A DNA stretch of 20,000 nucleotides from Lophium mytilinum (Eukaryota): positions 1,975,153-1,995,152 of the forward strand of contig MU004189.1 of NCBI GenBank assembly GCA_010093605.1, in the 5' to 3' direction. Below are positions 1 to 20,000 of this stretch, piece after piece (positions within the stretch are counted from its first letter, which is position 1; each line of letters starts with the position of its first letter). Under the pieces are notes generated by a model, which was not told where the DNA came from, searched no databases, and saw nothing but the letters and a program-made list of their open reading frames with translations. Position numbers and translations under genes: made by a program.

Positions 1-195
1 GCGGTGTATCTGACCGCGTACTCTGGAGGACCGGAGGACTTCATGAACACACCTTTAAACGATTTAGTGCAGCAGATTGCAGCTGGGAAGCTGAAAGTGC
101 AGCTAGGGACGGTTTTCAAGCTCGATGACATCGCAGCAGCTCACACACTGATGGAAGAAAACAAAGCTGGCGGAAAGGTCGTGGTTGTGAATTAG
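1..195 (+). CDS. 3' end of a zinc-binding/MDR-family (quinone oxidoreductase-like) dehydrogenase, truncated by the window start
   Basis: C-terminus ...LVQQIAAGKLKVQLGTVFKLDDIAAAHTLMEENKAGGKVVV matches the typical MDR ending (F.L.D...AH..ME.....GKVVV). Stop TAG at 193-195. Confidence 0.8.
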   Translation, partial: AVYLTAYSGGPEDFMNTPLNDLVQQIAAGKLKVQLGTVFKLDDIAAAHTLMEENKAGGKVVVVN

Positions 196-239
196 AGCGT
201 GTCTACGGTCATTCCAAACAATGCAAAGCACCCAATCTC

Positions 240-686
240 TCAAATATCCCATGCCGCGTTTTGCAACACCATCCTCCACCCGTCCGGATCCTCGAAGGTC
301 TTCCCTTGCACGTCCCAATACGGGTTGAAACTCGTCACCGCCCCAAACCCAGCCTTTTTCATTCGCGTAACCGCTTCTTTCCACTCAGTCTCGTCTGGAA
401 TATAGAATACTAGCAGATTATCCTGCGTGGGAGCTCGTCCTGCATCATGACCATCCTTTGTCGTGATTTCAAGATGGTATGGTGCCCCAGGATGCCCAAG
501 CATGACACCATCGAACCCGGCATGAGCAGTGAAGGATGATAAGATAGTGAAGCCGAGGCCTTCGGTATAGAATGGAAGGATTGCAGAAATATCGTTTGTC
601 GGACGAGCTATGCGGAGGTGGGATTTCGATATTGGTGGTGCGGGAGAGCTTATGGAGACTGACGATGGAGGCATTGGCGACGCCAT
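240..686 (-). CDS. VOC/glyoxalase-superfamily protein, YycE-like, intronless
   Basis: 148 aa with HLRIARPT..., FY..GLGF, H.GFDGVMLG, YHLE, DNLLVFY, NPYW...G.TFEDPDGWR.VL, recognised as the YycE-type VOC pattern. Confidence 0.8.
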   Translation of the reverse strand: MASPMPPSSVSISSPAPPISKSHLRIARPTNDISAILPFYTEGLGFTILSSFTAHAGFDGVMLGHPGAPYHLEITTKDGHDAGRAPTQDNLLVFYIPDETEWKEAVTRMKKAGFGAVTSFNPYWDVQGKTFEDPDGWRMVLQNAAWDI

Positions 687-948
687 GGTAGAACAGATTC
701 CAGAGATCTGGCTTTCGAGATGCGTTGCAATAGTTTTGTGATGGTTCCTGACAGCGGGACCGCTGTACCGCTCATATATACCATAGTTCGAGGTCTTACA
801 AATCCGAGGAATCTAGATTGTTGCCAATTGAATTCCTCTATACTCGGTCATGTGGCCCTTGAATGTGGAATCGTCGTTGCACTCTTCAAGTTACAGCTCA
901 GGTTCTTGGTATTACAGGAAGCTTTTTAGTTTTCTCGACCGTCCCGCC

Positions 949-2314
949 TCATCTTTTCATTGCCTCAAACTCCTTCTTCACCTCATCTAATAGCCCCTTT
1001 CGCGTCAACACATCTATCGCCGTAGCCGCTAACCCTTTTCCAACGTTCAAAGCGAGTTCAAATGCCTCTCGCGTTCCAGAAACTTCCGTAAACTCGGGGC
1101 TGTGCGGGCCACTCCCTATATTCCCTGGCCGGATCCAAAACCCAGGACTCAAGCTTGGCATGGCATAGCTGATGTTGCCTTGGTCAGAACTGGCCATCGA
1201 TCTATGCTCAATCTCATCTATATCAGCTGTTGGGATAGCTCCACCCAGTCGGTTGAAAAAGTGGCGATACGACCGTCCCAGCGCACGATTCGGGACATGG
1301 TCGTCATAAGACTGCTCGAAAGTAACCTTCAAAGTCGCACCTGTCGCCGCTGCTCCAGCTTCGAAGCACGAATCCACCTTCTTTTTCAGCACCGCCAAAC
1401 GATCGCGCGTGTTTGCGCGGACGATGAAGACACCGGCGGCGTACGCGTGGATGATGTTAGGTGCGAGACCACCATCCGTGATGTGCCCTTGGATGATGTC
1501 TCCTGGCATGGTTTGCTGACGGAGGACAGAAAGGCCGTTATACGCAGTAATGAGGGCGTCGAGAGCATTGATTCCTAGCCATGGACTGGCCGCCGCGTGG
1601 GCTTCAAGACCAAAGTATTCCACTTTGAAGCGGATGTACGCAGCTGTACGGACGAGAGCGCCATCTTCGACGATTCCAGGATGCGAAATCAAGTTGATAT
1701 CACATTTGTAGTCCTTGTATGCACCGGCTTCAAGAAGCTTGATCTTGCCGCCTCCACCTAGGTTCAATTGAGCGTCTGTCACGCGAATTTGGATGCTAAG
1801 AGTAGATTGTGGTACCTTCTTCCGCTGGAGTTCCAAAAAGAACTACTTTTCCGGGTATGTCACACTCTTTCATACACTCTGCGGTTGCTAGAGCTCCGGA
1901 TAATGAGGCCGTAGCGATGAGGTTGTGGCCACAAGCGTGGCCAATGCCCGGGAGAGCATCTGCGTCTTTTGTTAGCATGACGTCTTGTAAAATAGCGAAG
2001 CCCGTACCCATTTCAGCATTGAAAGAAATGACTGGTCCCTTCTTGCCACTGTCATACACTGCGACAAATGCAGTTTCGAGTCCATATGCCGACGGCGTGA
2101 CTTTCCATCCTTTCCTCGTCTTTAGAAATCCCGTAAGTGCGGCATGTGCAATCTTCTCTTCGTACCCAAGCTCCGGATTATCATGTATCTTCTTGTTGAT
2201 GGGCCAGAGAGTGTCCGCGATGCGGTCAATGTAGGAGCCGACGGAGTCGAGGTGATCTTGCTCGGCCGACGCCACATCATCCATCTCCACCACAACAAAC
2301 TCATCAATTCCCAT
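949..2314 (-). CDS. Peptidase M20 family amidohydrolase (M20D / ACY1L2-PM20D2-like); 3 exons: 2314-2008, 1959-1816, 1757-949
   Basis: Motifs IHDNPELGYEE, AEMDALP.IGHACGHN, GTPAEEGGGGK, SHPG, AHAA..PW.G.NALDA, ASSDQGN, GPHS. Introns 2007-1960 (GTACGG..GCTAAC..CAG, 48 nt, in frame and stop-free) and 1815-1758 (GTACCA..TAG, 58 nt) restore the conserved motifs. Confidence 0.92.
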
Positions 2315-2766
2315 CCTTAGTATCGTTCCTTCTTTTCGACAAGCTTTCTAGGTCAAAATTCATTCGCAATGGGATGCATAGATCCTGCATGTTTGAGCAG
2401 CGGTCGGCTCCGTCCATGGTGATTCGTATTACACCCCCGCATCATGAACCCGACCTTCGGATCGATGAAGCCGATCACCATCCCCAACTCGGGACTCTAC
2501 CGCCTTATCATCGCAACCAGATATTGCGAAAGTGGGATTCTGGCCGAAAGCACTCATTCTTCCCGATTTTCGCCTCGGCGTACAGCGTATGGGTCCTTGT
2601 CACGACGGCTTAAAGGCCGTTAGACAGGACCCGAAGATACATAAATGCACGTCCTGGGATCCCTTGCTGCCTTCCACGTGGAAACCCATCTTGCAAAGAG
2701 CTTGGAAACCTGGGGTCTCATAGCTGTGGGTATTAGCTGAACATCGTCTTACCATACCTCATTCCC
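2315..2766. promoter_or_regulatory. Divergent intergenic promoter with clustered inverted CGG pairs and one GATAAG site
   Basis: CGG-N6-CCG 2401-2412, CGG-N10-CCG 2458-2473, CGG-N7-CCG 2490-2502 and CTTATC 2504-2509, between head-to-head genes. Function is inferred. Confidence 0.4.
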
Positions 2767-4493
2767 ATGTCGATCATGGACGAAGTCAAGACCTCCCACG
2801 GAACTCAGGGCCAGAGCGGCGAGATTGAGAAAGAAATCGCAAAAGTGGACACCATCAACCTCGAGAAATCAACGCTTCACATCGACGATGAAGCAGGAGA
2901 CCTTGCAGCACAGGCTCTCGCCAGTGGGCCGTTGGACGAGGCTGCCTCGAAGAAAGTCCTGAGGAAAATTGATCTCTACATTCTCCCATTCCTCTGCATT
3001 ACGTACGCCCTCCAATTCATCGATAAGACTTCTCTGGGTTACTCCAGTGTCTATGGAATTTTCAAAGACACCAAACTCGTTGGCCAAGACTACTCATGGG
3101 CGAGCTCAATCTTCTATTTCGGATACCTCATCGCCGAGTATCCCGGTGTAGCTATTATCCAGAGGTTCCCAGTGGCCAAGTTCCTCGCCGTAAACATCAT
3201 CCTCTGGGGTGGTGTATTGATGACAACCGCCGCATGCCACTCTTTCGCTGGTCTCGCTACAGTTCGATTCTTCTTGGGTATTACAGAAGCTACCATCTCG
3301 CCGGGGTTCGTGGCCATCACTGGAATATGGTGGACGCGACAGGAGCAAGCCGGCCGTTCCGCTCTCTGGATTTCCTTCCTCGGCGTTGGATCTCTATTCG
3401 GAGGCCTGATCGCATTCGGAATCGGCCATATCAGCGGCAGTCTCTCGCCCTGGAAGTACATCTACCTCATCCTCGGCGCCGTAACTATTATCTGGGGCAC
3501 AATATTCTTCTTCGTTGTTCCAGGTATGCACTAATCCATCCATTCTATACGCGCGCAATTCCTAATAACATGCAGATAGCCCAACGCAAGTAAAATGGCT
3601 CTCACAGGAGGAAAGGGTTATCGCCGTGCAGCGTGTCATCGGGAACAAAACCGGCACGAAGTCTCGAACCTTCGTCAAAGCACAAGTCGTGGAGGCCGTC
3701 ACAGATCCTAAGATCATCGTGCTGGGCCTAATTTCGTTCGTGAATGCTCTTGCATCTGGCGGCCTTTCATTTGGATCCTTGATCATCGCCGGGTTTGGGT
3801 TCAGTCCCATTGAAACGACGCTGATGAACATGCCTCTTGGAGCCGTTCAGACAGTGGCCCAGCTGAGTGCCGGCTTCCTCTGCACGAAGATAAAGGGTTC
3901 ACGTTTGATCATCGCTTCAATCGCTATGGTACCACCAGTAAGCATCATGCTCCATGAGTAACCCTAGAGTCATTCTGACAACGGCAGATAATTGGTACTT
4001 GTCTCATCAACCAGCTTCATCCAACGCAAAAATGGGGTCGGCTCGTCGGCGTCTGGCTTCTAGGCTCCTACCCCGTCGGCTTCATGGTGATCCTTGGCCT
4101 TCTTAGCACTAACATTGCTGGCTCTACGAAGCGATCAGTAGCGTCGGGCTGGGTTTTCGTCTGCTATTGCGTAGGTCAGATCTCGGGACCGCAATTCTTC
4201 AAAGCCTCCCAAAAGCCAGCGTATCATAGTGGTATTGTGGCTATGCTCTGCGGTTTTGTATTGAACTTGGTGCTCAACCAAGTTCTACGTTACTTGTATG
4301 TTCGTGAGAATACCAAGAGGGATAAGATGATCGAAGGGAAAGGTGAGGAGGAGCTCGCGGAGTTGCAGATGGAGAGTAACATCAAAGGATTTGAGAACAC
4401 GACAGATACGCAGAATGTAAGTGGAATAGATGATCGCGCTATAAGTTCTTACACTAATCTTACTTTTAGATGATGTTCCGATACGTCTTGTAG
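2767..4493 (+). CDS. MFS transporter, allantoate permease (Dal5-like, ACS family); 4 exons: 2767-3523, 3576-3937, 3988-4416, 4470-4493
   Basis: Motifs KKVLRKIDL.ILP, QFIDK, YSWASSIFYFGYL.AEYP, RFFLG.TEA, WWTR.EQ..R, PDSP...WLS.EE, NIAGSTKR, GPQFF and terminal FRYVL*. GT-AG introns at 3524-3575, 3938-3987 and 4417-4469 each have a CTAAT/CTGAC branch site and keep the frame. Confidence 0.93.
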
Positions 4494-4803
4494 AGTCATA
4501 TGTTTGGGTACCTTGATGAATAACTAGGAAGCTTCTCCTCGATCGGGATTCTAAATCACATATATCTATATCAATATTATACGTTTATTTGGCTTTGGGG
4601 AGTGTTAGCGAGTTTCTTTTCGCCGTAATGAGACACTAGAGCGGATGTATGCATACTTGTCAAGTCGTGTCACCCTGTGCAGGGAGCCGTTCCCACAAAC
4701 ATGAAATACAGCAGTCTCCAACTTGGAGATCGGCAGCATCCATCATGCGATGGCGCCTCCCGAGAAGGACGTTTTGATTTCGCGGCGTTTGATAGTTAGG
4801 GCA

Positions 4804-5787
4804 CTAATTGGGCACGAACTGCCACATGTCCCAAGGGCTCCGCTCTTTGAGCCACTGCCAATCCATAACCGAGTGCACCTCGAAAGGCGCCTGATGCATC
4901 CAGTCATGAACCAAAACTCCGACCGGCAAATACAGCCTCGTCCTAGGGAAGTGCTCATTTTCCACCGCCATTTCCCGCAACAAATCAAGTCCTTTCTCTT
5001 CCCTCGCCGCACGAAGTCCCTGATAGCAATGGACCCTGATTTCCAGCTCACGTAAACCTGGTAACAACGGCAGCATATCCTGAATACTCTTCCAGCCATC
5101 CTTCGGCGCCCCCAACGAGGGCAACTTCAGATCAAGATGAAAAGCCCGCACGTCATCACGGCTCTGCGGGGTAAGCCCATCCACGAACCGCTCCAAGGTG
5201 TAAGGCGACCGGAAACTGAAAATGTTCGACGAGTAGAGGAATTCAATGGATTCGGCGTACACTTCTCGGCAAGTGCGCAGCAGCTGCGGCGACACCCGGT
5301 CGCCGCCCCAATCGTACTTCGCGGTGTCGCAGTTCCAGTCGCGCTGCCAGGAACTCATCCCGCGCTCCGGGTACGTGGCGGCGCCGGGGCAGGACGCGCA
5401 GATGCAGCGGGTATGGCGCACAATCTGATTCCCATGTCTGAGGACGATGTGGACGTTTGAACATCCAAGAACTAGTTCGTATATTTCTTGGCGGAGCTCG
5501 ATTGGGAGGCGGAAGAAGGGGGATTGGGGCTGGGGAGATGGCTCTTTGGATAATAGAGACGTTGAAGCGTGTGGTGGGATAGAGACTTGGTTCCTTCCAT
5601 CGGTTCTTGGTCTGTTTGGGGACTCATTGTTTTCACTACCAGAAAATAGCCGCCGGAGTGGATTGACGGTTTTGCGGGCCACCTTTCGGTAAGAGGATAT
5701 CTGGAGATCGACGGGAGCCATCCCGCCGATGCCTGGGTGCTGCCTTTCATAGTTCCGGCGGGCCTCAATTGAGTGATCGAGCCGCAT
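4804..5787 (-). CDS. Fungal protein of unknown function with F-box-like motif (DUF7730-like)
   Basis: 327-aa ORF containing QSPFFRLPIELRQEIYELVLG and LLRTCREVYAESIEFLYSSNIFSF, a motif pair common in this Pezizomycotina family. The start codon is uncertain. Confidence 0.7.
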   Translation of the reverse strand: MRLDHSIEARRNYERQHPGIGGMAPVDLQISSYRKVARKTVNPLRRLFSGSENNESPNRPRTDGRNQVSIPPHASTSLLSKEPSPQPQSPFFRLPIELRQEIYELVLGCSNVHIVLRHGNQIVRHTRCICASCPGAATYPERGMSSWQRDWNCDTAKYDWGGDRVSPQLLRTCREVYAESIEFLYSSNIFSFRSPYTLERFVDGLTPQSRDDVRAFHLDLKLPSLGAPKDGWKSIQDMLPLLPGLRELEIRVHCYQGLRAAREEKGLDLLREMAVENEHFPRTRLYLPVGVLVHDWMHQAPFEVHSVMDWQWLKERSPWDMWQFVPN

Positions 5788-6213
5788 TGCTCTTGAGGAA
5801 GGAAAATGATGGTTGAGTTGAAGATGGCAAAGGGCAGGTATAGTCCGTAGGGCGGAGAGCGTGCATAATATAAGGTACGAGCGAGGCGGAGTAGGGAGGC
5901 TCGCTGGAGCTCTAGCCTCAACCGTGACGCCTTGCTGCCTTACGTGAGCAAGGGTGGTCGGAGAATACGAATCAGCCCCGATTTTGTACGATTGAATTAT
6001 GTAAGCAAAGATCGAGTCACGGGCAGTTCTGATATGATCTCCAGGGTGCAGTTACTTATTAACATCAGGGTAATGGAGATTACGAGTATTGATTGTTTGC
6101 TATGTACAGCTTCTCTCGCGGGTACTCTTTGCACTAATTGTAAGAGAATTCAATCAGGGTCTGTAGCCTGCAAGGGCTTCATGAGACAGACACGCGACGC
6201 TACGGGGAAGTCC

Positions 6214-7526
6214 TCACGGCTTTGAAAATTGGTCGAAGAACTTCATGATAATCTCGCTCGCCTGGATATGAGTAGGACCCTCTCCAACAGAAATCTGTGA
6301 AAAGTTGATTTCGGTGGAAGCCCAGCAGTGACCTGAAAGCAGTGCATGTTAGCTACACATGCTTTCTGGAATGAGGGCTTGAGAACACGTACCCATGTCG
6401 TCGACTTTCCAGTGCTGCAAAGCCTCGAGGCCGTCGCACGTTAAGGTAATATGATGCACATCGCCGTGGAAGCTATCATCCTGTTTCTGGCTTGTGCATG
6501 CATTCCGTTTAGCCCACCAAGTCAACCTAGGTCTCATTAGCATTGCCAGCGCAGATTTGTTTGATGTGGCACAATCTGAGGAACGATCGAAGGGTGGTGT
6601 ATTTTTGAAGATACTCACCAATCAAGAATTGCTGGTTCATCTCCACCTTCACCTTCCCCGCCATCGTAGTGAACGCTTTTGTCGCTACCACCATGGATCT
6701 CCAGGAGGGGAAGCGGGCTTCTCGCGGGTTTGCATTCATCGTGGTGTTTATTGTTGTCAGTGTAGTAAGACCCTGACGCTGGAGCGAAAGCGGCAAATTC
6801 TCCTCCAATCTCGTTGCAGGCAATAGTATTAACAAAGCCACCGCCGTTGGACATACTTCATTCGGTTAGTCTAGGAGCAAAGGTAATGAAAGAACACCGT
6901 CGGTATAAACGTTGAATGGCCAAGACTTACCCAGTCGCATAAATTCGGTCGTTGTCAATGCAGTAGTCACCCCTGATTTCGTCAAGTAGGTCGGCTACAA
7001 ACTGCAAGTCTTCTACCACAGAGACCTTGGAGTAGTTGGCTCCAGCCCATGCGCCCTGGTCTCATTAACACGTGCTTGTCGAGTGTCATAGCATATGTGC
7101 AAAGCGTGACGTACCCCGATACCGTCTGGATAAACCATGATCTTCTAGAGCATCGTTGATGATTAGCAGTGTTCTTCCTCTCCTCAGGAAAGGAGCGGCA
7201 AAGCTTCTTACATCGCCACTGAACCGAGGCTCGCTCATCTTGGTATCTGCCTCAAAGAACAGGCCCACGCTATCAGATCCATGAAAGCCTATGACGAGAG
7301 GGTATGGTTTCGCTTTGTGGTAATCGACTGGTAGATGGATCGAGTACTTCCGATCGCGGCTACTGCTCTTCAAGTCGTGATATTGTGTGATGCCATTGAA
7401 GTAATGAGTTTTCCCGCATCCCTTCGTTCCCGATGCTGTTGCTACGCGCTGTGGGGTAGTTGCCGGCCATGCATGAGCAGCTGCGGCTATGCAGGTTACG
7501 GCGATGGCGGCAAGGCTGAGGCGCAT
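6214..7526 (-). CDS. Secreted carbohydrate esterase family 1 / feruloyl esterase C-like alpha/beta hydrolase; 6 exons: 7526-7212, 7144-7115, 7055-6931, 6855-6619, 6526-6393, 6332-6214
   Basis: Signal peptide MRLSLAAIAVTCIAAAAHA, then GCGK, R.Y..HLP..Y....PYPLV.GFHG, VYPDG, CID..RIYATGMSNGGGF (nucleophile Ser), EIHG.SD and GHCW (catalytic His). Five GT-AG introns (7211-7145, 7114-7056, 6930-6856, 6618-6527, 6392-6333) splice into one open frame ending FFDQFSKP*. Confidence 0.9.
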
Positions 7527-8108
7527 GATGATACGGGCTGATAGCACACTTTACAATGTTAAGGATGTCGTGTCAGGATGTTAGGAGGCATGAGGGTCAG
7601 TCTTGCACAGTAAAAGGAGAAACTCGCTCTTCACCTCCAAGAGCACTCGAGGCAGGCACGGCCTTGGGAGACTCTCATCCTCCCGTGCCTCTATGCTTGA
7701 GAGGGAGTGGCAAATCCTCGCCTAAAGAGGCATGTCGGGAGCAGTAAATTGATTCGGTGGTTGCACTTGAAAGGGGCGACAGATCCGAAACGCCATTGGC
7801 GGCCATTTAATGAGGTCTGCGTCGTCCACCGCCATGTGTGGTTTGACTGGCCTGCATTATAGTGCGTAGACGCGGCCTAGGCCTCTGTAAACATGTTATT
7901 TCTGCGTGTTCAATGCAAGACGGAGGAGTTTTGGAGACAGAATGCGAGGAGGACACATGGATGCTAAGCGCCCTAATTATGTAACATTTCCCAGCACCAC
8001 TCGGGACTGATTTATCGGGTGCGAAATAGCGTAGAATCCTTAGCACATTTTTCTTAGCGTTCCTTACTAAACTTTATATAAGGATTATAGGGAGCACTAT
8101 CTATTTAA

Positions 8109-9656
8109 ATGTTAGCCTTTTAATATCCCCCTAATAATAATAAGTAAGGTTTCTTACCTATACTATATAGTTACTTACTAATATTTTCTTAGTATTTTAG
8201 TACCCCTACTAACTACCTATACTAATAGAAGATATATTTTCTTTATATCTAGTAACGCGCCTACTAATACCCCCCCTATTTAAATAAGCCTAAGAACTAC
8301 TACTATAGTAAGTATAGTAACGGGTAGTAGAAAGTCTACTACTCTAAAGGTAGCGTATAAGCCTTTAAAGCTAAAGGCTACTATACTAAAGAAAATACTA
8401 CCTCTAGTATATATATAGATACCTTTTATAAAGGCTAGAGTATTAGTATAGTAGAATAAGTTACTAGATATACTAAGTAGCTCTTTAAGAGTTAAGAGGG
8501 GGCCTATAAAGATAGCTATAAGTAGTAAGAAAAGCTCTAAAAAGGTAGCTATAAGTAGTAAAAAGAGCCCTAAAAAGGGCTCTAAGAAGGTAGATCTAAT
8601 AGCTATTAGTTCTAGTAGTATTAAGAGTACTACTAGTACTAGTAGTACTATCTAGTACTATATTAAAAAGAAGAAAGAGAAGAAAAAAAAGATTAATAAC
8701 TTTTTAGTTACTCTATTCTATATTCTCTATATTAATAGAAAGAAGGTTAGTAATAAATAACTAGAGAACTCTATATACTTTACTCTTAATATAAAGAATC
8801 TAAAGTTTAAGCTAAATATAATAGTATTAATAGCGCAGGTTAATAGTAACTATAAGAAGAAGTATAAGATTATCTAGTATACTACTATTATTTATATAAT
8901 AAAGGGGACTAGAGGCTTTCTTAGCTATAATATAGCTAACTTTTTACTCTTAGAGTTCTAGCGGGTATTCTATATACTTAATTTAAAGTAGAAAGACTAT
9001 CTAAAGGCTACTATTTCTACTATATTTAAGTATAAGTTAATTTATAAGCCCCTGCCACCACTATTAAAGAAGAGAAAGAAAGTAGAGGTACTATTATTCT
9101 TACTAGCTAGTACGCTATCTATAGATAGGTTCTATACTAGGTATTATAGTAATTATAGCGGAAAGCTATTAAAGTAGTAGGTAGTCTATTTAGAGTTACT
9201 TTTAGTATCTAGCTACTAGTAAGTTAGTATAATATTAGTATATAAGTATACTAATAATACCTATACTAATATAGGTAACCTATACTTTATTAATAATAAT
9301 AAGTAGTACTATATAATACTCTTTAAATACTATAAGTTATAGATAGATATAATTACTTAGAGGAATACTATAATCTCTTAGCTATCTAATAAGATATATA
9401 AGAACCTTATAAGAGAGGGTCTAGTTAAAAGTAACTACTAGCGCACTATAAAGTTAACTTAGGTATAAAAGTCTAAAAATAAGATAGCTAGAATATTTAA
9501 TATAATAGAGCACTTAATAAAGCTCTAGATATAGTAGAAAGATATAGAGATAGTAGATTAGATAGTATTATAAAGCGCTTCTTCTTAAAGCGCTTTTTCT
9601 TCTTCTTCTTTTTTTTTTATTTAGCCTTAGTATAGCCTTTCTCTATAGGCTCTATA
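8109..9656 (+). pseudogene. 5' part of a RIP-inactivated gene of unknown function, interrupted by the Gypsy element
   Basis: ATG 8109; intron-like 8144-8192 (GTAAGG..ACTAAT..TAG); one coherent frame to 9656 with a low-complexity N-terminus and a putative C-x4-C-x6-C-x7-H motif at 9247-9309 (TAT/TAC codons read as RIP'd TGT/TGC/CAC). Stops are TAG/TAA, consistent with RIP of CAG/CAA/TGG. Confidence 0.55.
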
Positions 9657-9878
9657 TATTATAGCATAAACCTAGAATTATAGTAATTATATACTAAGAT
9701 TACATGTAGCCCCTTATATAACCTAAGTAAGACGCTAGCCCGAGGCGCTAGGCCGCGGCCTATACGCTGGCGTTAAACTATAACCTCTTAAGAGCTCCTA
9801 GCTCTCTCTCTTCTTCTTAGCTTAGATTTTTATAATAGTTAATATACCTTATTACTTATATTATATTAGCCCCCTATA
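9657..9878 (+). repeat. 5' LTR (222 bp)
   Basis: Direct repeat of 17169-17390 with 10 mismatches by manual alignment, all transitions, no indels. Termini TA..TA are the RIP product of TG..CA. Confidence 0.96.
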
Positions 9879-9879
9879 T

Positions 9880-9889
9880 AATCTAAGCT
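9880..9889 (+). promoter_or_regulatory. Self-priming-type primer binding site
   Basis: AATCTAAGCT, 1 nt after the 5' LTR, is the exact reverse complement of AGCTTAGATT at 9819-9828 inside the LTR. Confidence 0.75.
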
Positions 9890-10299
9890 TACTCTTCTAT
9901 ACTTAGAATCTTATTAATTTTTTCTAGAACTCTATTATAAGATCTAGGCGTTTTTACTAAAATAACTTAAATACTAGCCAGCCTAGCTGTATAGCTACGC
10001 GCGGCACCTAAATCTAACCTAGTAGATAATCTAGCACCGCCTCCTTTAAATAAGCTAGTTAATCTAATAGCTAGGCTTTAAGATAATTTAAAGACTCTAG
10101 GCGCTATAAGTAGCGCTAACCTAAATACTTTAGAATATACTTCTATAACTCTATTAACCGCTAGCAATAAGAAAGCGCGCTGCACTACTTAACTTGCGCG
10201 CTTTTAAGGTATAGTAAAAGGCTCCTCTATTCTAGCTATTATTTCTAGCTTCTAGTATAGAACTAGAGGACTAATTTTAAATATCTAAGAAGAAACCTA

Positions 10300-12349
10300 A
10301 GCCTTCTTATAGACTATAGATAATACTTAGCGCGCTAACACCTAGCGTGCTAATGCCTAGCGCGCTAATACCTAGCGCCCTAAACGCTTAGTAGATAATT
10401 AAGTTAATACTACTAGAACCTTAAACTAAAACATTACTAATAAGCTTAACCTAGACTATAACTCTAATAATAAAGGCAGCTTTATAACGCCTAGCGCTAA
10501 TATATTAGGTAAGCGCACTATCTAATTTATTATAGAAGATAATATATATAAGCCTCTAATATAAAAAGATAGTAAGCTGCACCCTATACATTACTAAGTA
10601 TTTATAGTAGACTAATAAGCCTCTATCTTAGTTATATATTATAAGACTAAATAGATTCTAGATACTAAACCTAAGTATATAGATATTCTAGAGAAACTAT
10701 AAGAAACTAATCTATAGCGCTATATATAGCTACTAGTCTAGCTTCTTAACTATTATAGTAATAGTACTATAACTATTAATACTATAGTTACTAATAAGAC
10801 TAAGTTTACTATAGCAGTAAATAAGAATAACCTAGTATAGTAGAAATTCTTCTAGAAGCTCTATATAGAGTATAAAGTAGGCTTTAAAGAAGCTAATAAT
10901 AAAGATAAGCTCTATAATAAACTTTAGAATAAATACTAAAAGTATAAATAGAATACTGCTAATAATACTACTATAGTAGAATAAGAACTAAAGGCCTATT
11001 ATACTAAGTAGCTCTAGCAAGTTATAATTAGTTAATAGGCTAACCTTAAGCTTAACTAGATGCGCCTACGCTATAATTACTAGTGTAGTAAGTACTAGAC
11101 CCTTAAAGAGATATATAAGAAGCTTACTACTTATATTAAGAAGCTTAAATAATAGCTTTATTAGTAGAGCCTATAGCCCTTAAACCCTAATTATAACTCT
11201 AATAATAATAATAGTACTTATTCTCCTACGCCTATAGTTCTACTTTGCTATTATTCTATTAGCTAGCCCCTGCAGTTTAAACCTATTAAGAGTAAGTCCG
11301 CCACTCTATTTACGCCTATTTAGAATCTTAGCGCATATATAGTAATATCTTATTACCCTAATCTAGATAAGTTTAGTAGTAGTAATAAGAATAAGCTATT
11401 CTACTAGTAATAGCGCATATAGATACTTAGTAAGCTAGATATCTACGCACTACTATACGCTACCGCGCATTATTATATAATATATATTTATAATAGGCTT
11501 AAGAGAAAAGCCTTTAATATAATCTTCTATTGCGCTAAACCTAATAGTAATAAGCTATACCTCTCTATAGAAAAACTAATTAATAATCTAGATAAGGTCT
11601 ATAGACCTTTTAATAAGGCGGCTAATATATATACTAATTTATATAATAGTAAGTTTATATAAAAGAAAGATAAGCGGGTTATAACTTAGGTAGGGCGCTT
11701 TAATACTAGTATAGCTTTCCTCTACTTTAAAGACCCTAAGAAGATCTACTATATATAATATAATCTTGCTAATAGCCTTAAGTATAAGGTAGCTAATAGA
11801 TAAGATACTAATATAATAACCTTTATTACGTTTCTATAAACCTTAGAATTCTAGCTTAATATTATTAAGCTAAATAGGGATAACTATAAGAATAAGAATA
11901 AGAACGCCCCTAAGTCTACGCGTAATACCTATAAAGCTACCGGTGCTAGATCTACCTCTACTATACCTCGCCGCCTGCTACTTACTAACGCGGAGCATAT
12001 ATCTAAAAATAATACTAGTAACGCTACTTTAAGTACTAGTGTAAATAACTTACTAGGGCCTTTTAGTTATAATTACCGCACTATTACTTATCTTAAGTAG
12101 CTAGGTTACTACTAGAACTATCTTAAATATAGATATATAGCTAATAGCAACGCCCTATATATTAGCTAATAGCTAGTTCTAATCTATAAGGTTAGCGGCC
12201 TTATAAATAAGATTAGCCTCACTAGTATTAACATTAATATTAGCGCTATAAATACTAGCTCTACCTATAATAAGATAATAGAAAATACTTAGTTTTTAGT
12301 AATAGTTACTACTAAGAACCCCTAATAGTCTTTAATAATAAGAAACTAA
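10300..12349 (+). pseudogene. gag relic (start not determined, at or upstream of 10300)
   Basis: One frame carries a 15-bp repeat at 10322-10390, a capsid-like segment near 11582-11700 (LDKVYRPFNKAAN...VGRF) and a degenerate Cx2Cx4H knuckle near 12110-12160. It ends AGA AAC TAA at 12341-12349. Confidence 0.65.
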
Positions 12350-15300
12350 AAGCAATTATAGATAGAATTGCTATTTTAGAATAAGAAATTAAGCTAGTTA
12401 TAGTATATATATCTACTCTTATACTCTAGCTAGTTAATAGTAAATAATTTAGCTTTTTAGGTAGCATCCTCTAATCTAATTTATTTACTACTAAAATTCT
12501 TTCTAATATAGAATTAGGCTCTTAATTTCTTTATTTAAAGACCGCGCGCCTTTATAAGATACCTACTTAACTCTTTTTATAACCTGTTATTCTTAAGCTT
12601 ATAAATAGTAAGCCCTCTATTATATTAGACCGCGCTATAGATATTACCTTCTATATAGGTAACTACTATAATATAGTTACTTACTATATTACTAATACTA
12701 GATAATATAATATAATTTTAGATATACTCTAGCTATAGCTTTATAACCCTACTATTAGCTTTAGAAAGATACAACTTATCTTCTAATCTAACTACTATAT
12801 ATCTAACTACCTATAGTATAGTAGGCTAGTTATTATAAAGAGCCTTATCTATTTAAAATATATTAAAATTAAACTATACTAGAACCTAGGCGATTTCTAT
12901 AGCTCTTAATATAACCCTAACTCTAACCCTAACTCTAACTCTAACCCTAATTCTAACCTTAGCCCTATTATTAAAGGGCCTAATAATACTAAAGACTCCC
13001 CTTAGCTTAACTATAATAGGAAACCTCTTCCTTCTAAACTAGTTCTACCGGATAAACTACCTAAATATAATATTTAGTTTATCTCTATATACGCCTGTTC
13101 TACTATAGTAAAATAAGATAAGAACGCGGTAATAACTATTACTTTATAAGACTTTAAGTAATTAGACTAACTAGATAAAATAGATAAGTAATACGCCTAC
13201 GGGCGCTAGATAGTAAACCTTATAGGCGTTACTATAGAAGATTACTATTAATTTAAGAAGAAGATAACTAAATTACCTTATACTAAAGATTAGCTATAGT
13301 AGAAAGTTCTACTTTTCTTCTATTAGATTCTAGACGCTTTTAATCTATAAGCAGCTAATAAACTACTACTATATAGGCATAGTATAGACTATACTATTAA
13401 CTTTAAGAATCTAAATATAAAACCCCCTATTCTGCGCTAATATAGCCTCTCTTATAATAAGCTATATACTATTAAAGCCTATATTAATAAAATACTTAGA
13501 AAGAGCTTTATTTACCCTAGCACATTACTATTTACGGCGCCCGTTATTATTATCTATAAGCTAGGTAAAGAACTCTATATCTATATTAATTACTACTTAC
13601 TAAATAAAATTATAATTAAGAATAGAAATATATCTTTTTTCTTATATAATATAATTATACAGCTTTATAAAGCTAAGATATACTCTATCTTTAATATTAT
13701 TACCGCATTTAATAATATCCGCGTTAAGAATAGTAACTAGTATAAAATAGCCTTCCGCACTTAATACAGCGTCTTTAAATTTAATATTATGCCCTTTAGC
13801 CTATATAATGCTCCCGGTATATTTTAATTATTTATTAATTCTATACTATATCTATACCTAGATATCTACTATATAGCTTATATAGATAACGTTCTTATCT
13901 ATAATAATAATAAAGAAGATTATAAAAAGAACTATATAAACGTTCTTATAGTACTATATAATATAGGACTCTTTCTTAATATTAATAAGTGTTATTTCTT
14001 AGTTAAATGCGTAAAGTATCTTAGACTTATTATTACGCCTAATAGCATAGAAATAGACCTAACTAAGGTTAGCGCTATTTAAGACTAGAAGCTGCCCCGT
14101 AATATTAAGAATATTTAATTATTCCTTAGCTTTTATAATTTCTATTAGTAATTTATTACTAGTTATTTATAGATTGCCGCCCTACTAACTAAGCTTACTA
14201 AGAAAATAATAGAATAAGGTAACTTTCCCTTACTTACTAATAGTCTAGTAGTATAAGCCTTTAAGAAGCTTAAAGCCTTATTTCTATCTATACTAGTTCT
14301 AGCCTACTTTAATCTAGATCTAGACTATATACTAGAGACTAACACCTTAAATTATATTATAGCCGCAATCCTCTCTTAATAAGGCCCGGATAGAATCCTC
14401 CGCCCTATTGCCTTTCTATCTAAGAAGATAACTCTAGCGGAATACAACTATAAGATATATAATAAAGAGTTACTTACTATTATCCGCGCCTTTAAAGAAT
14501 AGCGCCCTAAACTTACTAGTATTATTAACCCTATACTTATATAAATAGACTATAAAAACCTAGAATACTTTATATCTTCTAAATAGTTAAATTGCTAATA
14601 AGCCCGTTAGGCTAAATATCTTTCTTAATTTAACTTTATTCTAAACTAGCAACTAGGCAAGCAGTTAACTAAGCCTAATAGCCTTACTTATAGGCCTAGC
14701 AATATTCTAGATAATCTAAATAACTCTAGAACTATGTATTAAATATAGATAGTATTAAAGAAGAGAAACCTACTAGAAAAAATATACTAAGCTCTATAGC
14801 TTGCTAGCATGCTCCTTAATAAATAGAAAGTATCTATTATCTAGCTTACTAAGCTAATATATAAAGTTATAGAGTAACACCCTATAAATATTCTATATAT
14901 TATTCTAGTAGCTAATAGAATAAGAGAAATAAAGAAACACTTAACTAAGATTGCAGCTAATTATAGTAAGTTAGATAAAGATCTATAGAATACTACCCCT
15001 AATATTATTATATCTACTATGCCTTAACCTACGCCTACGCCTACAGCTACTAATAATCTATCTAGTAAAGGAGCGCCGGAAGTATCTAAACCTAGTAATA
15101 AGTTAGATAAGGACTTACTAGGGAACTATACTAATAACGCTACTATCTAGTAGATTAATTAAGCCTATATAGAGGATAACATCCTCTAGCATATTATATA
15201 TACTAAGAAAACTAGTAAATAATATATTCTACTTAAACTTATTTAGAAATAAGGTATTAAAATTAAGCTTAGTAATTATAAAATCTATAAAAATAGACTA

Positions 15301-17150
15301 TTTATTAACAGCCGCCTATATATTCTATATAACGTAAAGCTCTATACGCAATTAATTAAGGAAGCCTATAACTCTCTCCTAAAAGGCTACGCTAGAAGAA
15401 ACTCCCTCTACTATTGCCTCTTCTTCTAGTACTACTAGCTAGGTATTATAAACTCTATTACTATATATATTAACGCCTATTTAATATATAGATATACTAA
15501 GGTCTATAAAAATAGTAAATATAGCTTACTTAAGCTACTACCTATTCTAAATTAATACTAGATAGATATCTCTATTAACTTTATTACTAAGCTACCCTCT
15601 TATACTATTAAGGGCTATACATACTAATATATTATAGTAGTTATTAACTAACTATCTAAAAAGCGTAAGTTTATCCCCCTAGACTCTATAGAGCTAGAGA
15701 ATATTACGTAAGCCTTTATTAACTAGATCTAGCGTAAGGAAGGCTATCTAGACTATATTATATCTAACTATAGCGCGTAGTTTATATTCTTCTTTTAGAA
15801 GCACCTCTATAAGTATATAGAAATATACTTAAAGCTATCTACTATAGCCTATCTAGAAATAGATAGATAAACTAAAATTATTAATATAGGTTTAAAGTAA
15901 TACCTACGCGCGTATATCTACTACCTATAGAATAACTAGGTAAATCTAATTATATTTACTAAATTTAAGGCTAACACTAATATTAATTAGTCTACTAGCG
16001 TGTTACTATTTAAAGCTACTAAGGGCTATACACCCTATAGTAGCTTAGAGCCGTTATTTTAAGATATTATTATTCTAGGCCCTAAGCGCTAAGGAGTTAA
16101 CGCAGCTAAGAAACTTATTACGCGTATTTATAATCTATAAGAGTTCCTTAAAGAAGAACTCTATTAGAATTAGTCTAAGATAAAGGAGCTAGCTAATTAA
16201 AATTAGCTGCCCGCCTTTAAGTTTAAAGTTAATAATATAGTTATACTAAATACTAAGAATATTTATACTATATAACTAAGTAAGTCCCTTAACTATAAGA
16301 ACCTTAGTCCCTTCTATATAATATAAGTTATTAATAATATAGCCTATAAGCTAGAACTTTCTAAGTCTATAAAGGGAATCTTTCTAGTATTCTACCCCTA
16401 GCTACTTTATTAAATTAATAAGACGCCTCTTCTAGAATAATATCTAGAACCCCTACCTACGCTTAAGATAGAAGAAGATAGCTTTATAGGTTAGTTCTAT
16501 ATTAATAAAGTCCTTAACTTCTAGTTTAATAGCCGCTAACTAAATCTATATATAGGTAAGAAGCCTTACTTAGTCTATAAGATAGCCTAGACTAGATATA
16601 ATAATACCTAGCCTAAATAGAAGCCCTATTAGAACGCTAATAGATGTAATAAACTCCTTATAGAATACTACGCAAAATATAGTCTTAAAGTAGAACCTTA
16701 TCTAATATTTAGCACGTCTAAATAGAAGGTCGCGAAAATAATAGGTAAAAGTATAAGCGCTACTACAGCAATAGTAGGCCTATAGAATATTCTTAGCACT
16801 AGCCTAAGTAAGTATAAATAGTAACCTTATTAGGTAGCTAAGTTATCTTATAAGAAGGCTATTCTATATAGGTAACCTAAAGTAGAACTCTAATAGGTAG
16901 AAGCTAATAATAAGCCTTAGGTTAATTTATATAGCCCGCTTATAGCGCTTAAGAATAAATATAAGAATAAATATAAGAATAAAAATAATAGAAATAATAG
17001 AAATAATAGAGATAATAGAAATAATAGATATAGTAAGACTATAGATAATAGTAAGTATATATATAGTAAGGCTGCATAAGTAGCTTAATAGAAACGGGAT
17101 AGAAAGAATAGAGAAGCTATAATATATTATAAGCCTTATAGAACTTTAGC
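12346..17150 (+). pseudogene. pol relic: protease, reverse transcriptase, RNase H, integrase, chromodomain
   Basis: All in one frame: PR AAT ATA GAA (from DTG) 12505-12513; RT MPFSLYNAP 13789 and YIDN (from YxDD) 13879-13890; [24 protein letters not shown] 14401; IN ISINFITKLP 15568, IISN ending 15768 and TK ending 15876 giving D-x35-E spacing; SPF (from GPF) 16306; chromodomain 16498-16680. The 3' end is uncertain. Confidence 0.92.
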
Positions 17151-17154
17151 TTTT

Positions 17155-17168
17155 AAAGAGGGGGGTAG
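17155..17168 (+). promoter_or_regulatory. Polypurine tract
   Basis: AAAGAGGGGGGTAG immediately before the 3' LTR. Confidence 0.9.
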
Positions 17169-17390
17169 TATTATAGTATAAACCTAGAATTATAGTAATT
17201 ATATACTAAGGTTATATGCAGCCCCTTATATAACCTAAGTAAAACGCTAGCCTAAGGCGCTAGGCCGCGGCCTATACACCGGCGTTAAACTATAACCTCT
17301 TAAGAGCTCCTAGCTCTCTCTCTCCTTCTTAGCTTAGATTTTTATAATAGTTAATATACCTTATTACTTATATTATATTAGCCCCCTATA
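17169..17390 (+). repeat. 3' LTR (222 bp)
   Basis: Direct repeat of 9657-9878, followed by the TSD CTATA. Confidence 0.96.
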
Positions 17391-17395
17391 CTATA

Positions 17396-17915
17396 GATAT
17401 ATATATAGCTCTTCTTCTCTCTACTACTTAGGCTATAGAGTTATTACTAGCCTATATTTATATTTTAGCCTTTAATACTACTATAGCTATAGTATACTCT
17501 TTTCTCTAGCTAACTATTACTAGCGTACTATTCTTATAGCTTAAGCCTAGTATATATAGAGAAAGACGCTAATATACTTAAGTTCTTCTTCTTCTAGAAG
17601 GTTAGAGTAATTATAAATGCGGGTATAAAGTAGTAGTAGTAGTATACTATATAAGTTATTATTAATTAGATATAGAATATTAATTTTCTTTAGTAGATAT
17701 AGAATAGATTCTTAAAGATATACTATATAGCTCTAGCTCTAGAGCTATTAAATAGAATAGTAATATAGTTTATAAGAGAGCTATATAACTTTAAGAATCT
17801 ATATAGATAGAAGAAGGCCGTGTTAAAGGCACTAACTATACTAGAAGAAGGCGGAGTAGATTAGAACGGGCGTAGAATATATAAAGGAGTTAGAATGCAG
17901 TTAGATATTAAATAG
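17396..17915 (+). pseudogene. 3' part of the interrupted RIP-inactivated gene that begins at 8109
   Basis: Frame continues exactly after removing the element and one TSD copy. A P/Q-rich tract is followed by SLSLV..EKDANILKFFFF*K (read as SSSPV..EEDADMLEFF..WK) and ..FIRELYNFKNLYR. The true stop is uncertain. Confidence 0.55.
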
Positions 17916-17971
17916 CTAGTTAAATAGAGTAATTAGTATTATTCTATATTATTATAGTTTTATATATATTA

Positions 17972-18318
17972 TATATAGCCTATATAGCCTTACTATTTAA
18001 TATATAGTCTATATAGCCTTTCTATTTTAAATTAGAGGCTATTTATAAAGTAAGGCTTAAGTATTAGTGCGGGCAAAATATAAAAATATATCTTAATATT
18101 TTATAGCTTAAGTATTAGTAGTAAGAATCTTAATCTAATATTTTAAGGCTTAAGTATTAGTAGTAAGAATCTTATTTTAAGGCTTAAGTATTAGCGCAGG
18201 GTAAATTTCCTCTATGCTAATACTTAAGCCTTAAAATATTAAAATAAGATTCTTACTACTAATACTTAAGCCTTAGGTTAGATTATATATAGAGTATAAA
18301 ATAGAAAGGCTATATAGA
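17972..18318. repeat. Palindromic repeat island (foldback/MITE-like)
   Basis: Perfect 22-bp inverted repeat at 18008-18029 / 18297-18318. The 17-mer TAAGGCTTAAGTATTAG occurs forward at 18051, 18102 (variant), 18144 and 18178 and inverted at 18217 and 18259. A nearly loop-less hairpin is centred at 18205/18206. A 29-bp tandem pair lies at 17972-18029. Confidence 0.85.
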
Positions 18319-18385
18319 AATATAATCTATTACTTTATTATATCTTAGTAAATATAAGTCTAAATTATATAAATAGATAGCTAAA

Positions 18386-19405
18386 TTACGCATCTAGATA
18401 TATATATTTACATCCGCGTACTAGATATATAGAAATATTAATTAGTAGTAATAATCTTTTAAAGTTATAGTTATAGTTTCTAAATGCATAGTTAAATAGG
18501 CTTAATTCTCTACTTCTTTCTTCTAGTATAACTAGCCCTAGGCTTTAGAGCCTACTTAAACGCTACTATATCTTCTATAGTATTAATCTAAGTATAGTAC
18601 TTACTTTTAACTCTATATATACTATATTTACTATCTAGATTATTATTAGTATAGAAATTAATATTATACTAATAATAGCCCCTAGTAAGTATATTCTAGG
18701 TATACTCTAGGTATATACTATAGGCTAGGCCTACCTAATTTTAGCTATATTAGCTATTAATAAGCTCTATATAAATAAGCTTAGTATAGTAAAAGCGCTC
18801 TTAAAGGGCTATAGTAATAGTAGAGAAGCTAAAAGTAGTAGTAAGATTATTAGTATACTAAGAAAGAGTTAGTAGATCTAGAATAATAGTAATAGTAAAA
18901 AGAGAGAGTAGGTAGTAAGCGCGGCGCTTTCTATATAAATAGATTAGCTAGATTCTTAAGCTACTATACTAGAAATTATATATAGTAGAGGGGGATTAAT
19001 TCTCTTTTCTTTATTTTTATTCTTATTCTTATTTTTATCTTTATTCTTTTTCTAGTTAAATATATTATAGATATCTCTACTAATAGTAAGAGTAGAAAGG
19101 GGGTATATAGATCTACTATATACTATATAAAGCCTCTAAGGGCTAGAATTCTCTAGACTCTTACTAGAGAAAGCTTCTAGTACCTTATCTTTAGCTTAAA
19201 CACCTATTATCTTCTTTTTAGTAAAAAGCGGCCTAGCCGCTACTATCTATATTACTAGAGAATCTAGGTAAATCTAAACTCTAAGGGGCCTAAAGAGGTA
19301 TATAGTAAGAGGTAGAAAGAAAAAGAGCTCTATAAAAATATTATTAATTAGGCTAAAGATAAAGCTCTAATTACTAGTATTATTAGCTATAGTATTATTA
19401 GCTAT
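18386..19405 (-). pseudogene. Probable RIP-inactivated ORF of unknown function (~340 codons)
   Basis: One frame reads as an acidic tract (AAG AAT AAA GAT.. from E/D codons, about 19005-19050), a Pro/Ser-rich region and a possibly Cys-rich tail (..VRGCNNI). Boundaries are inferred. Confidence 0.35.
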
Positions 19406-20000
19406 AGTATTATAGAGATAGTAATTAATAGTATATAGATATTAGGAATTTCTAAATTAAGAAATGTGTAGAGAATACTAGTTACTTATATAATCTTCTA
19501 GAAAACTATATATTTTACTACTCTATAGGCTTTATACTACTCTATAAAAGTTTACCTACTTTTTATATAAAATTTACGCGTAGGCTGTATAGATAATTCT
19601 TAATTATAGATAATCTAGTATTATAGGTAATTATTATAGTTAATAACTACTTTATAGTTCTTATAAATATAGCTATCTACCTCCTCTATCTAATCTTCTA
19701 AAACTGCCTAATCCGCCTAGGTTATAGATAGATAGATAATAATATAGATAGGGCCTTATATACTAAATATATAATTATTACATGCAGTAGGAAATTTAAA
19801 GTTGCACTAGTATATCTAGTTATTTCTTCTTACTACCTCTACTAGGGCTTTATAGTCTATAGTAACTTTATATATATTATAGACTTTATATATTATATAA
19901 ATAGTAATATCTATATATATTTCTAAGAATTATATAACTATTACTAATCTTAATAATTTTAATATTCTAGTAGACTATTAGAGCTAGTAATACGTACGCT

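Follow-up and report, generated by a model that had tools for sequence, protein, structure and literature searches.

We analyzed a window of 20,000 nucleotides from the fungus Lophium mytilinum (contig MU004189.1, which we call C9; positions 1975153-1995152, forward strand) and searched the 43.4-Mb assembly that it comes from. Beyond position 8,000, the window holds part of a dead, fungal cut-and-paste transposon that has been mutated by repeat-induced point mutation (RIP). We consider it quite likely that this is an IS630-Tc1/mariner (ITm) transposon whose lineage has two genes; its insertion target has probably switched to AT, and it has a third-gene cassette that is common to old subfamilies. 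Its departures from the class appear to be a conserved helper-like gene, apparent insertion at AT, and the near-identity of the third-gene cassette in distant subfamilies.

The RIP composite index is 1.1-2.1 in all 24 of the 500-bp bins across 8001-20000, as expected from the saturation reported in an initial annotation of this DNA, versus -0.2 to -1.0 in bases 1-8000, which are gene-rich, ordinary DNA. That annotation had also described, beneath a Gypsy retrotransposon, a single arm of some larger element that is present in many copies and whose mobilization gene is missing from the window. This was correct: positions 8030-9656 have five other copies (on C19, C16 and C14, and two on C12), almost full length and 79-87% identical, and all five run without a gap across the proposed join of 9656 to 17396 and into the sequence from 17396 on. 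The boundaries need revision. The repeat begins at 8010/8012 instead of 8030, and the match that is common to the sister copies ends at 19439, so that the window holds 3.7 kb of it instead of about 4.2 kb (8012-19439 minus the Gypsy element), which is the left part of a transposon of 5.2-5.8 kb. The left end recurs in inverted orientation about 5.2-5.3 kb away in three copies (the one on C19 and the two on C12), which gives terminal inverted repeats (TIRs) of about 190-195 bp with clean flanks. The full element is arranged as TIR, ORF1 (plus strand; ORF is short for open reading frame), hairpin island, ORF3 (minus strand), DD34E transposase (minus strand), and TIR. The copies form subfamilies A, B, and C, and the window copy is a member of A. 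Between subfamilies, the transposases are 49-52% identical and ORF1 is only about 35% identical. Besides the long elements, many short copies of 0.3-0.6 kb, which resemble miniature inverted-repeat transposable elements (MITEs), have the same ends. A consensus built from the genome copies stayed full of stop codons because they are saturated with RIP. The features of the window are:

8010-8011: AT dinucleotide, the probable left target-site duplication (AT at 37 of 37 paired sites, two HET-gene frames, same register as the TA of metagenome relatives)
8012-8202, plus strand: left TIR, about 190 bp, which holds ORF1 exon 1 and the intron (inverted copies in C19 and both C12 copies)
8109-8143, plus strand: ORF1 exon 1, with the ATG at 8109, within the TIR (its frame matches exon 2 once spliced)
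8144-8192, plus strand: 49-nt GT-AG intron within the TIR (splice signals; predicted splicing)
8193-9656, plus strand: 5' part of ORF1, with a disordered N-terminus, a beta-grasp-like domain, and a Cys/His motif (profile match, intact homologues, model of a homologue)
9657-17390, plus strand: Gypsy long terminal repeat (LTR) retrotransposon within ORF1, foreign to the element (LTRs, CTATA duplication, absent from five sister copies)
17396-17915, plus strand: 3' part of ORF1, with the conserved C-terminal helical domain (profile match; the 3' end is approximate)
17965-18320: palindromic island that makes up the left edge of the shared module (a 13-bp unit, arrayed head-to-head on either side of a hairpin; loop orientation varies by copy)
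18341-19400, probably minus strand: ORF3 relic, the core of the shared module (20 loci; indels mostly multiples of 3)
19437-19439: AGA, the left copy of a 3-bp Plavaka duplication (matching AGA at a junction on C11)
19440-20000, plus strand: left end of a Plavaka TIR element of about 26.5 kb, foreign to the transposon (21 matches; ends and Plavaka domain on four contigs)

The initial annotation left the element unclassified and placed its mobilization gene beyond 20000. In fact, the right 1.6 kb of the sister copies is a minus-strand transposase of the DDE_3/IS630 type; it follows directly after the equivalent of 19439 in intact copies, and the one that belongs to the window copy is on C11. 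The C3 copy matches Pfam's DDE_3 with E = 1e-12, a subfamily A copy on C16 scores over the cut-off, and the C19 copy scores below it (E = 3e-5). One RIP-mutated copy matches NF033545 (IS630) with E = 3e-11, which is below that model's cut-off, and relatives score over it. The D-34-E spacing (34 residues) can be read in a copy on C2 and in a metagenome relative (L093). Pfam searches of the frames with stops replaced by X gave no match for 14 of 16, including all 12 frames from the window; comparison of the transposase to solved structures gave no match at E ≤ 0.01, and neither did a word-based search with the alignment of RIP-mutated transposases. ITm elements as a rule duplicate TA, or TATA in Sailor (PMC8533490, PMC7325037, PMC13469147). 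Our element has the transposase type, the DD34E spacing, and the TIRs of this group; it lacks the TA duplication, and it has two ORFs beyond the single one of canonical Tc1/mariner elements. Judging by its sequence, then, it is an ITm element by its transposase, yet it is not a canonical one.

The intron-containing gene that had been proposed on the plus strand is ORF1. Its start codon (8109) and a GT-AG intron (8144-8192) lie within the TIR, and removal of the intron keeps the frame. All three subfamilies have the donor, branch-like, and acceptor signals, as do both TIRs of one A copy, which suggests that the intron is spliced. A profile from 13 RIP-mutated copies identified 52 homologous proteins. 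Those with a named source, among them proteins from Mytilinidion (E = 7e-78), Pyrenula, Eremomyces, Rasamsonia, and Lipomyces, are all annotated as hypothetical. In turn, a profile of intact homologues matches on both sides of the Gypsy element, at 8668-9522 (independent E = 6e-16) and at 17559-17840 (independent E = 1e-6). Among the residues that are conserved are three Cys, Asn, His, Trp, and Pro-Pro. In the predicted structure of one homologue, a disordered N-terminus is followed by a beta-grasp-like domain, the Cys/His region, and a long helix, with a compact, helical domain at the C-terminus. The beta-grasp-like domain resembles the PB1 structure 4mjs_A (Z = 7.5, root-mean-square deviation 3.1, 88 residues aligned), with a score in the common range.

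Other searches with ORF1 gave little. No family in Pfam (39 family members) or NCBIfam scored over threshold, matches to PDB sequences were limited to low-complexity regions, and Foldseek with either of two models found nothing at E ≤ 0.001. In a wide fold search with the second model, coiled coils filled the results, so that the zinc and C-terminal domains were barely probed. A look-up of the homologues in the Atlas led to unnamed clusters at 0.90 and to a weak SAM lead at 0.80.

Metagenomes contain 52 loci of ORF1, although a scan with a single homologue as the query had no match. The gene reaches its C-terminus at 36 of these loci, and at 34 of the 36 it faces a related, convergent transposase that begins 36-91 bp further on; of the remaining two loci, one comes to an end after another 52 bp. 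No transposase lies within 2.5 kb upstream at any of the 34 loci with room there. Most of these elements measure 3.3-3.6 kb and have TIRs of 150-200 bp. (One metagenome contig, L102, has a second two-gene element at 2166-5708, 1.6 kb from the first, with other TIR ends and flanked by TA. There is a Cys-rich motif in its other ORF, too.)

To compare subfamilies, we counted only transversions, since RIP does not cause them. Between A, B, and C, transversions in ORF1 affect 37-38% of third codon positions versus 22-28% of first and second positions. Also, the identities of ORF1 and the transposase co-vary across 20 chosen relatives (rho = 0.83, 0 of 999 permutations as high, in a test that ignores kinship). 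Because of the third-position excess and the co-variation, ORF1 is, as far as sequence comparison can tell, an old and selected part of the transposon lineage. It defines an unnamed ascomycete protein family that is tied to ITm transposases. The element had been described as cargo-carrying, which does not suit ORF1, since its behavior is that of an accessory gene fixed in the lineage; the term is apt for the ORF3 module alone.

A search for the terminal pattern of the element gave 94 matches, versus 13 for a control. We compared 37 paired sites (10 long elements and 27 short ones), and AT is found at both ends of all 37, with TA outside at none. The search pattern included the A at 18 sites and excluded it at the other 19, and all 19 still have it. 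Duplications of 3, 4, 5, 8, or 9 bp were seen at 0 of the 37 sites. We also asked which empty site would restore an open frame, and this was informative for 2 of the 37. On C20, where a MITE interrupts a HET gene, two bases are left over from the upstream frame (Pfam HET, E = 2e-20) and two from the downstream one, and the two halves join in frame only with two added bases; among 11 paralogues that we fetched, both pieces matched 9, and they lie in one frame in all 9. On C5, the ATG frame and the HET ORF join only with AT. Finally, the ends of the element align without gaps to the ends of its metagenome relatives, and the AT is in register with their target positions. At the same two positions, 15 distinct sites of the relatives have TA (7), AA (3), TT (1), or an unmatched pair (4). 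Most likely, insertion duplicates AT instead of TA. (As a separate observation, both of the informative coding insertions of MITEs, L061 on C5 and L161 on C20, are in HET-domain genes.)

Downstream of ORF1, the palindromic island of the initial annotation is far more foldable than shuffled sequences (z = -10.9). In intact elements, a partial inverted copy of the island bounds the other end of the module. The loop of the hairpin occurs in both orientations (7:10 among the 17 of 18 copies that could be read), with both forms in A and in B. As for the minus-strand relic that had been placed at 19405-18386, its extent stands, as about 18341-19400 at 20 loci, and its frame and strand are probable. 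The predicted protein, ORF3, is low-complexity and rich in Ser, Thr, and Pro, and most indels are multiples of 3. Pfam had no match to 19 members, and we found no homologues among longer proteins (proteins of near length were outside that search). All 20 loci are beside ORF1 or transposase pieces of these elements, and none is free. In relatives from elsewhere, the module is absent and there is no room for ORF3. Between subfamilies, transversions average 26-29% in ORF1 and 19% in the transposase, as compared to just 0.4-0.8% in the 1.2-kb module, which is less than the divergence of the flanking genes within subfamily A (2.4-2.7%). Furthermore, informative variants in the module cross subfamily lines. 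The simplest account, and one that we somewhat favor, is that the module was acquired once and was then exchanged repeatedly by recombinational repair, perhaps from the hairpin.

The main rival to this account is that the hairpin-flanked cassette is a separate, site-specific insert: an independent, non-autonomous element with a preference for the gap that separates ORF1 from the transposase, which would have entered each subfamily on its own. The module does look like an element, as it is bounded by inverted repeats, is far younger than its flanks, and is missing from relatives elsewhere. However, none of the 20 ORF3 loci lies outside these elements, the edges of the module are ragged and subfamily-specific with no duplication seen, and its variants are shuffled among the subfamilies; we view separate insertions as rather unlikely. 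The uniformity of the module could instead be an artifact of assembly, with the hairpin region collapsed, and indeed one copy has a run of N within the island. But the module copies differ by about 15% at the DNA level and have private indels, so they are not one collapsed sequence, and we consider this explanation very improbable. Another view is that ORF1 and ORF3 are host genes that were captured by transduplication and are useless for transposition, which is how Manning et al. interpret a 3.4-kb Tc1/mariner element with two ORFs (PMC3538342, as described there). That ORF3 lacks a conserved homologue would agree with capture, and for ORF3 transduplication is possible. In contrast, ORF1 has kept its position and its signal of selection over deep splits, and genome searches (whose counts are lower bounds) turned up no unmutated host version of either gene. 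For the two genes together, capture seems quite unlikely.

The target site also has other explanations: the AT could be part of the TIR, without any duplication, or this could be a TA-type element whose ends we have shifted. An invariant AT on both sides is compatible with either version, and at one GC-rich site on C11 (L156) the open frame is longer without the AT. On the other hand, two HET genes require the two extra bases, the TA of the relatives is at the same two positions of a gapless alignment, and none of the 37 sites has TA outside. We judge this alternative to be distinctly improbable. Lastly, an AT duplication and a two-gene build are known from ISL2EU of the PHIS group (PMC4482050, as far as described there). 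The long TIRs and convergent genes also recall MuDR and hence a Mutator-like element. We give almost no credence to either affiliation. The family of the transposase, which matches only DDE_3 and IS630 models, largely refutes both; in addition, no YqaJ or Myb match was found in 39 members of the ORF1 family, and neither an 8- or 9-bp duplication nor the A|AT|T flank bias was found at the insertion sites.

Several points weigh against our reading as a whole. The AT duplication is based on two reconstructed empty sites, none observed; the N-terminus of the HET gene on C5 is unconfirmed in its paralogues; and L156 points the other way, albeit with no Pfam match in either flank. The 34 metagenome pairings of ORF1 with a transposase are not 34 independent cases, because the loci come from one assembly series and collapse into 22 clusters at 97% identity, 10 at 90%, and just 3 at 80%; the permutation test on the two genes likewise takes no account of kinship. 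The beta-grasp match is middling, the ORF3 frame has the fewest fixed stops by a narrow count (13 of 274, versus 14 for a frame on the plus strand), and the functions of ORF1 and ORF3 are both only putative. Also, we saw no intact or expressed copy.

If the reading is right, each long TIR would provide a promoter and a leader intron to the adjacent gene, in the style of MuDR. The transposase of this genome's lineage would cut and duplicate AT instead of TA, and the relatives with relaxed TA, AA, and TT targets look like an intermediate state toward AT. ORF1 would be a nuclear accessory factor under selection, with a beta-grasp domain, a putative Cys3His zinc site, a coiled coil, and a helical C-terminal domain; our best guess, which could equally well be wrong, is that it acts as a chromatin or anti-silencing cofactor or as a scaffold for transposition. 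The island and ORF3 would have entered the short gap between two convergent genes as a module and then passed among the three old subfamilies. Breaks at the hairpin, or gaps left by excision, may have been repaired from another element, with the inverted a-b repeats at the edges of the module as the shared homology; we lean slightly toward this route. A bolder and more doubtful proposal combines these ideas: an AT-switched ITm element whose transposase depends on a dedicated zinc-binding helper, and a selfish, hairpin-flanked cassette that spreads across subfamilies by homing-like gene conversion and flips its loop as it does so.

To our knowledge, ITm elements are regarded as targeting TA almost universally, and accessory proteins of transposons have been described chiefly for Harbinger, CACTA, and MuDR. 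If confirmed, a DD34E lineage that naturally targets AT and has relatives with relaxed TA, AA, and TT use would make it possible to follow target recognition through comparison of transposases, and it could add to the set of transposon tools. A cassette that is homogenized over subfamilies with about 35% identity in ORF1 would imply sequence exchange between transposon lineages.

In its layout, the element is reminiscent of MuDR of maize, which is about 5 kb, with TIRs of about 200 bp and convergent genes that start in the TIRs. MuDR has a Mutator-like (MULE) transposase and makes a 9-bp duplication, neither of which is present here. A closer precedent is the 3.4-kb Tc1/mariner element of Pyrenophora tritici-repentis, reported as a case of transduplication in 2013 (Manning et al., PMC3538342). 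Like the present element, it has a transposase and one extra ORF between its TIRs, and its size is in the range of the two-gene relatives described above. The extra ORF is taken as a captured Osmo-CC gene, and the published description that we draw on mentions no third gene and states neither a target-site duplication nor the length of the TIRs nor the orientation of the genes; Osmo_CC was not among the Pfam results for the 39 members of the ORF1 family. Thus, the two-gene build has a partial precedent, by comparison of descriptions only.

Dici1 and Dici2 of Diutina catenulata, which are ITm elements of a fungus as well, have three coding sequences and a transposase of the DD34E type, but according to their description they duplicate TA, have TIRs of 8-33 bp and a central transposase, and their extra coding sequences specify a protein of 143-146 aa and the relic of a transposase (PMC13469147). 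Canonical ITm elements (IS630, Tc1) share the DDE_3/IS630-type DD34E transposase, TIRs, a 2-bp duplication, and MITE derivatives, but are described as having one ORF and TA, instead of AT, two extra genes, and TIRs that bear introns (PMC7325037, PMC8533490). The TBE and Tec elements of ciliates are multi-ORF DD34E ITm elements as well, with other accessory genes (a recombinase in Tec) and in another host group, as summarized in PMC7325037. ISL2EU shares the AT duplication and the two ORFs, but it is reported to have an unrelated PIF/Harbinger-type transposase, YqaJ as its second ORF, and an A|AT|T target (PMC4482050). Our search of the literature on AT-targeting or two-gene fungal ITm elements, whose scope excluded Repbase and most subscription journals, found no paper that reports module exchange or the targeting of AT by such elements.

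Two foreign elements interrupt the window copy. The LTRs of the Gypsy element (9657-9878 and 17169-17390) are 95% identical, there are matches to reverse transcriptase and RNase H between them, and a 5-bp duplication, CTATA, lies at 9652-9656 and 17391-17395. The right end of the window, 19440-20000, has 21 matches in the genome, mostly at 90-95% identity, and is the end of a separate Plavaka element: on C7, C11, C12, and C13, the same end is found together with a Plavaka domain and the opposite end, over a total of 26.5-26.7 kb. The supposed tail of a third minus-strand ORF (20000 to about 19621) lies in that stretch and is foreign to the transposon. We rejected an LTR end or the tail of a long interspersed nuclear element for 19440-20000, as the reverse transcriptase match in L166 is outside the shared unit and the ends have a 3-bp duplication.

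The missing right part of the window copy is at C11:326455-328077, where the sequence resumes at the same base at which the window copy breaks off. The C11 junction has the matching AGA duplication and an inverted Plavaka end, and the right TIR on C11 is the closest to the window's TIR (90% identical). Therefore, the copy was split either by a rearrangement (translocation) within nested elements or by a mis-join. The halves of one transposon copy are thus on different contigs (window 19437-20000 and C11:326455-328599, in L051). The same giant Plavaka element is inside two further copies of this transposon family, at C7:2180504 and C11:258833.

The C14 copy has an insert (L035, about 1-5750) of about 7.5 kb with much weaker RIP than the surrounding element. 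A non-autonomous copy on C23 (L060, 1599-5365), with subfamily A TIRs, has a little-mutated ORF inside that resembles a pogo/Fot1 transposase, as judged by eye from the translation. Within the window's Gypsy element, 12900-12960 is a short tandem run of TAACCC/TAACTC, similar to telomere repeats. In the unmutated flank (240-7550), ORFs resemble, by eye, a glyoxalase-like protein, an M20 peptidase, a major facilitator superfamily (MFS) transporter, and a secreted esterase, and the transposon lies about 480 bp upstream of the last of these.

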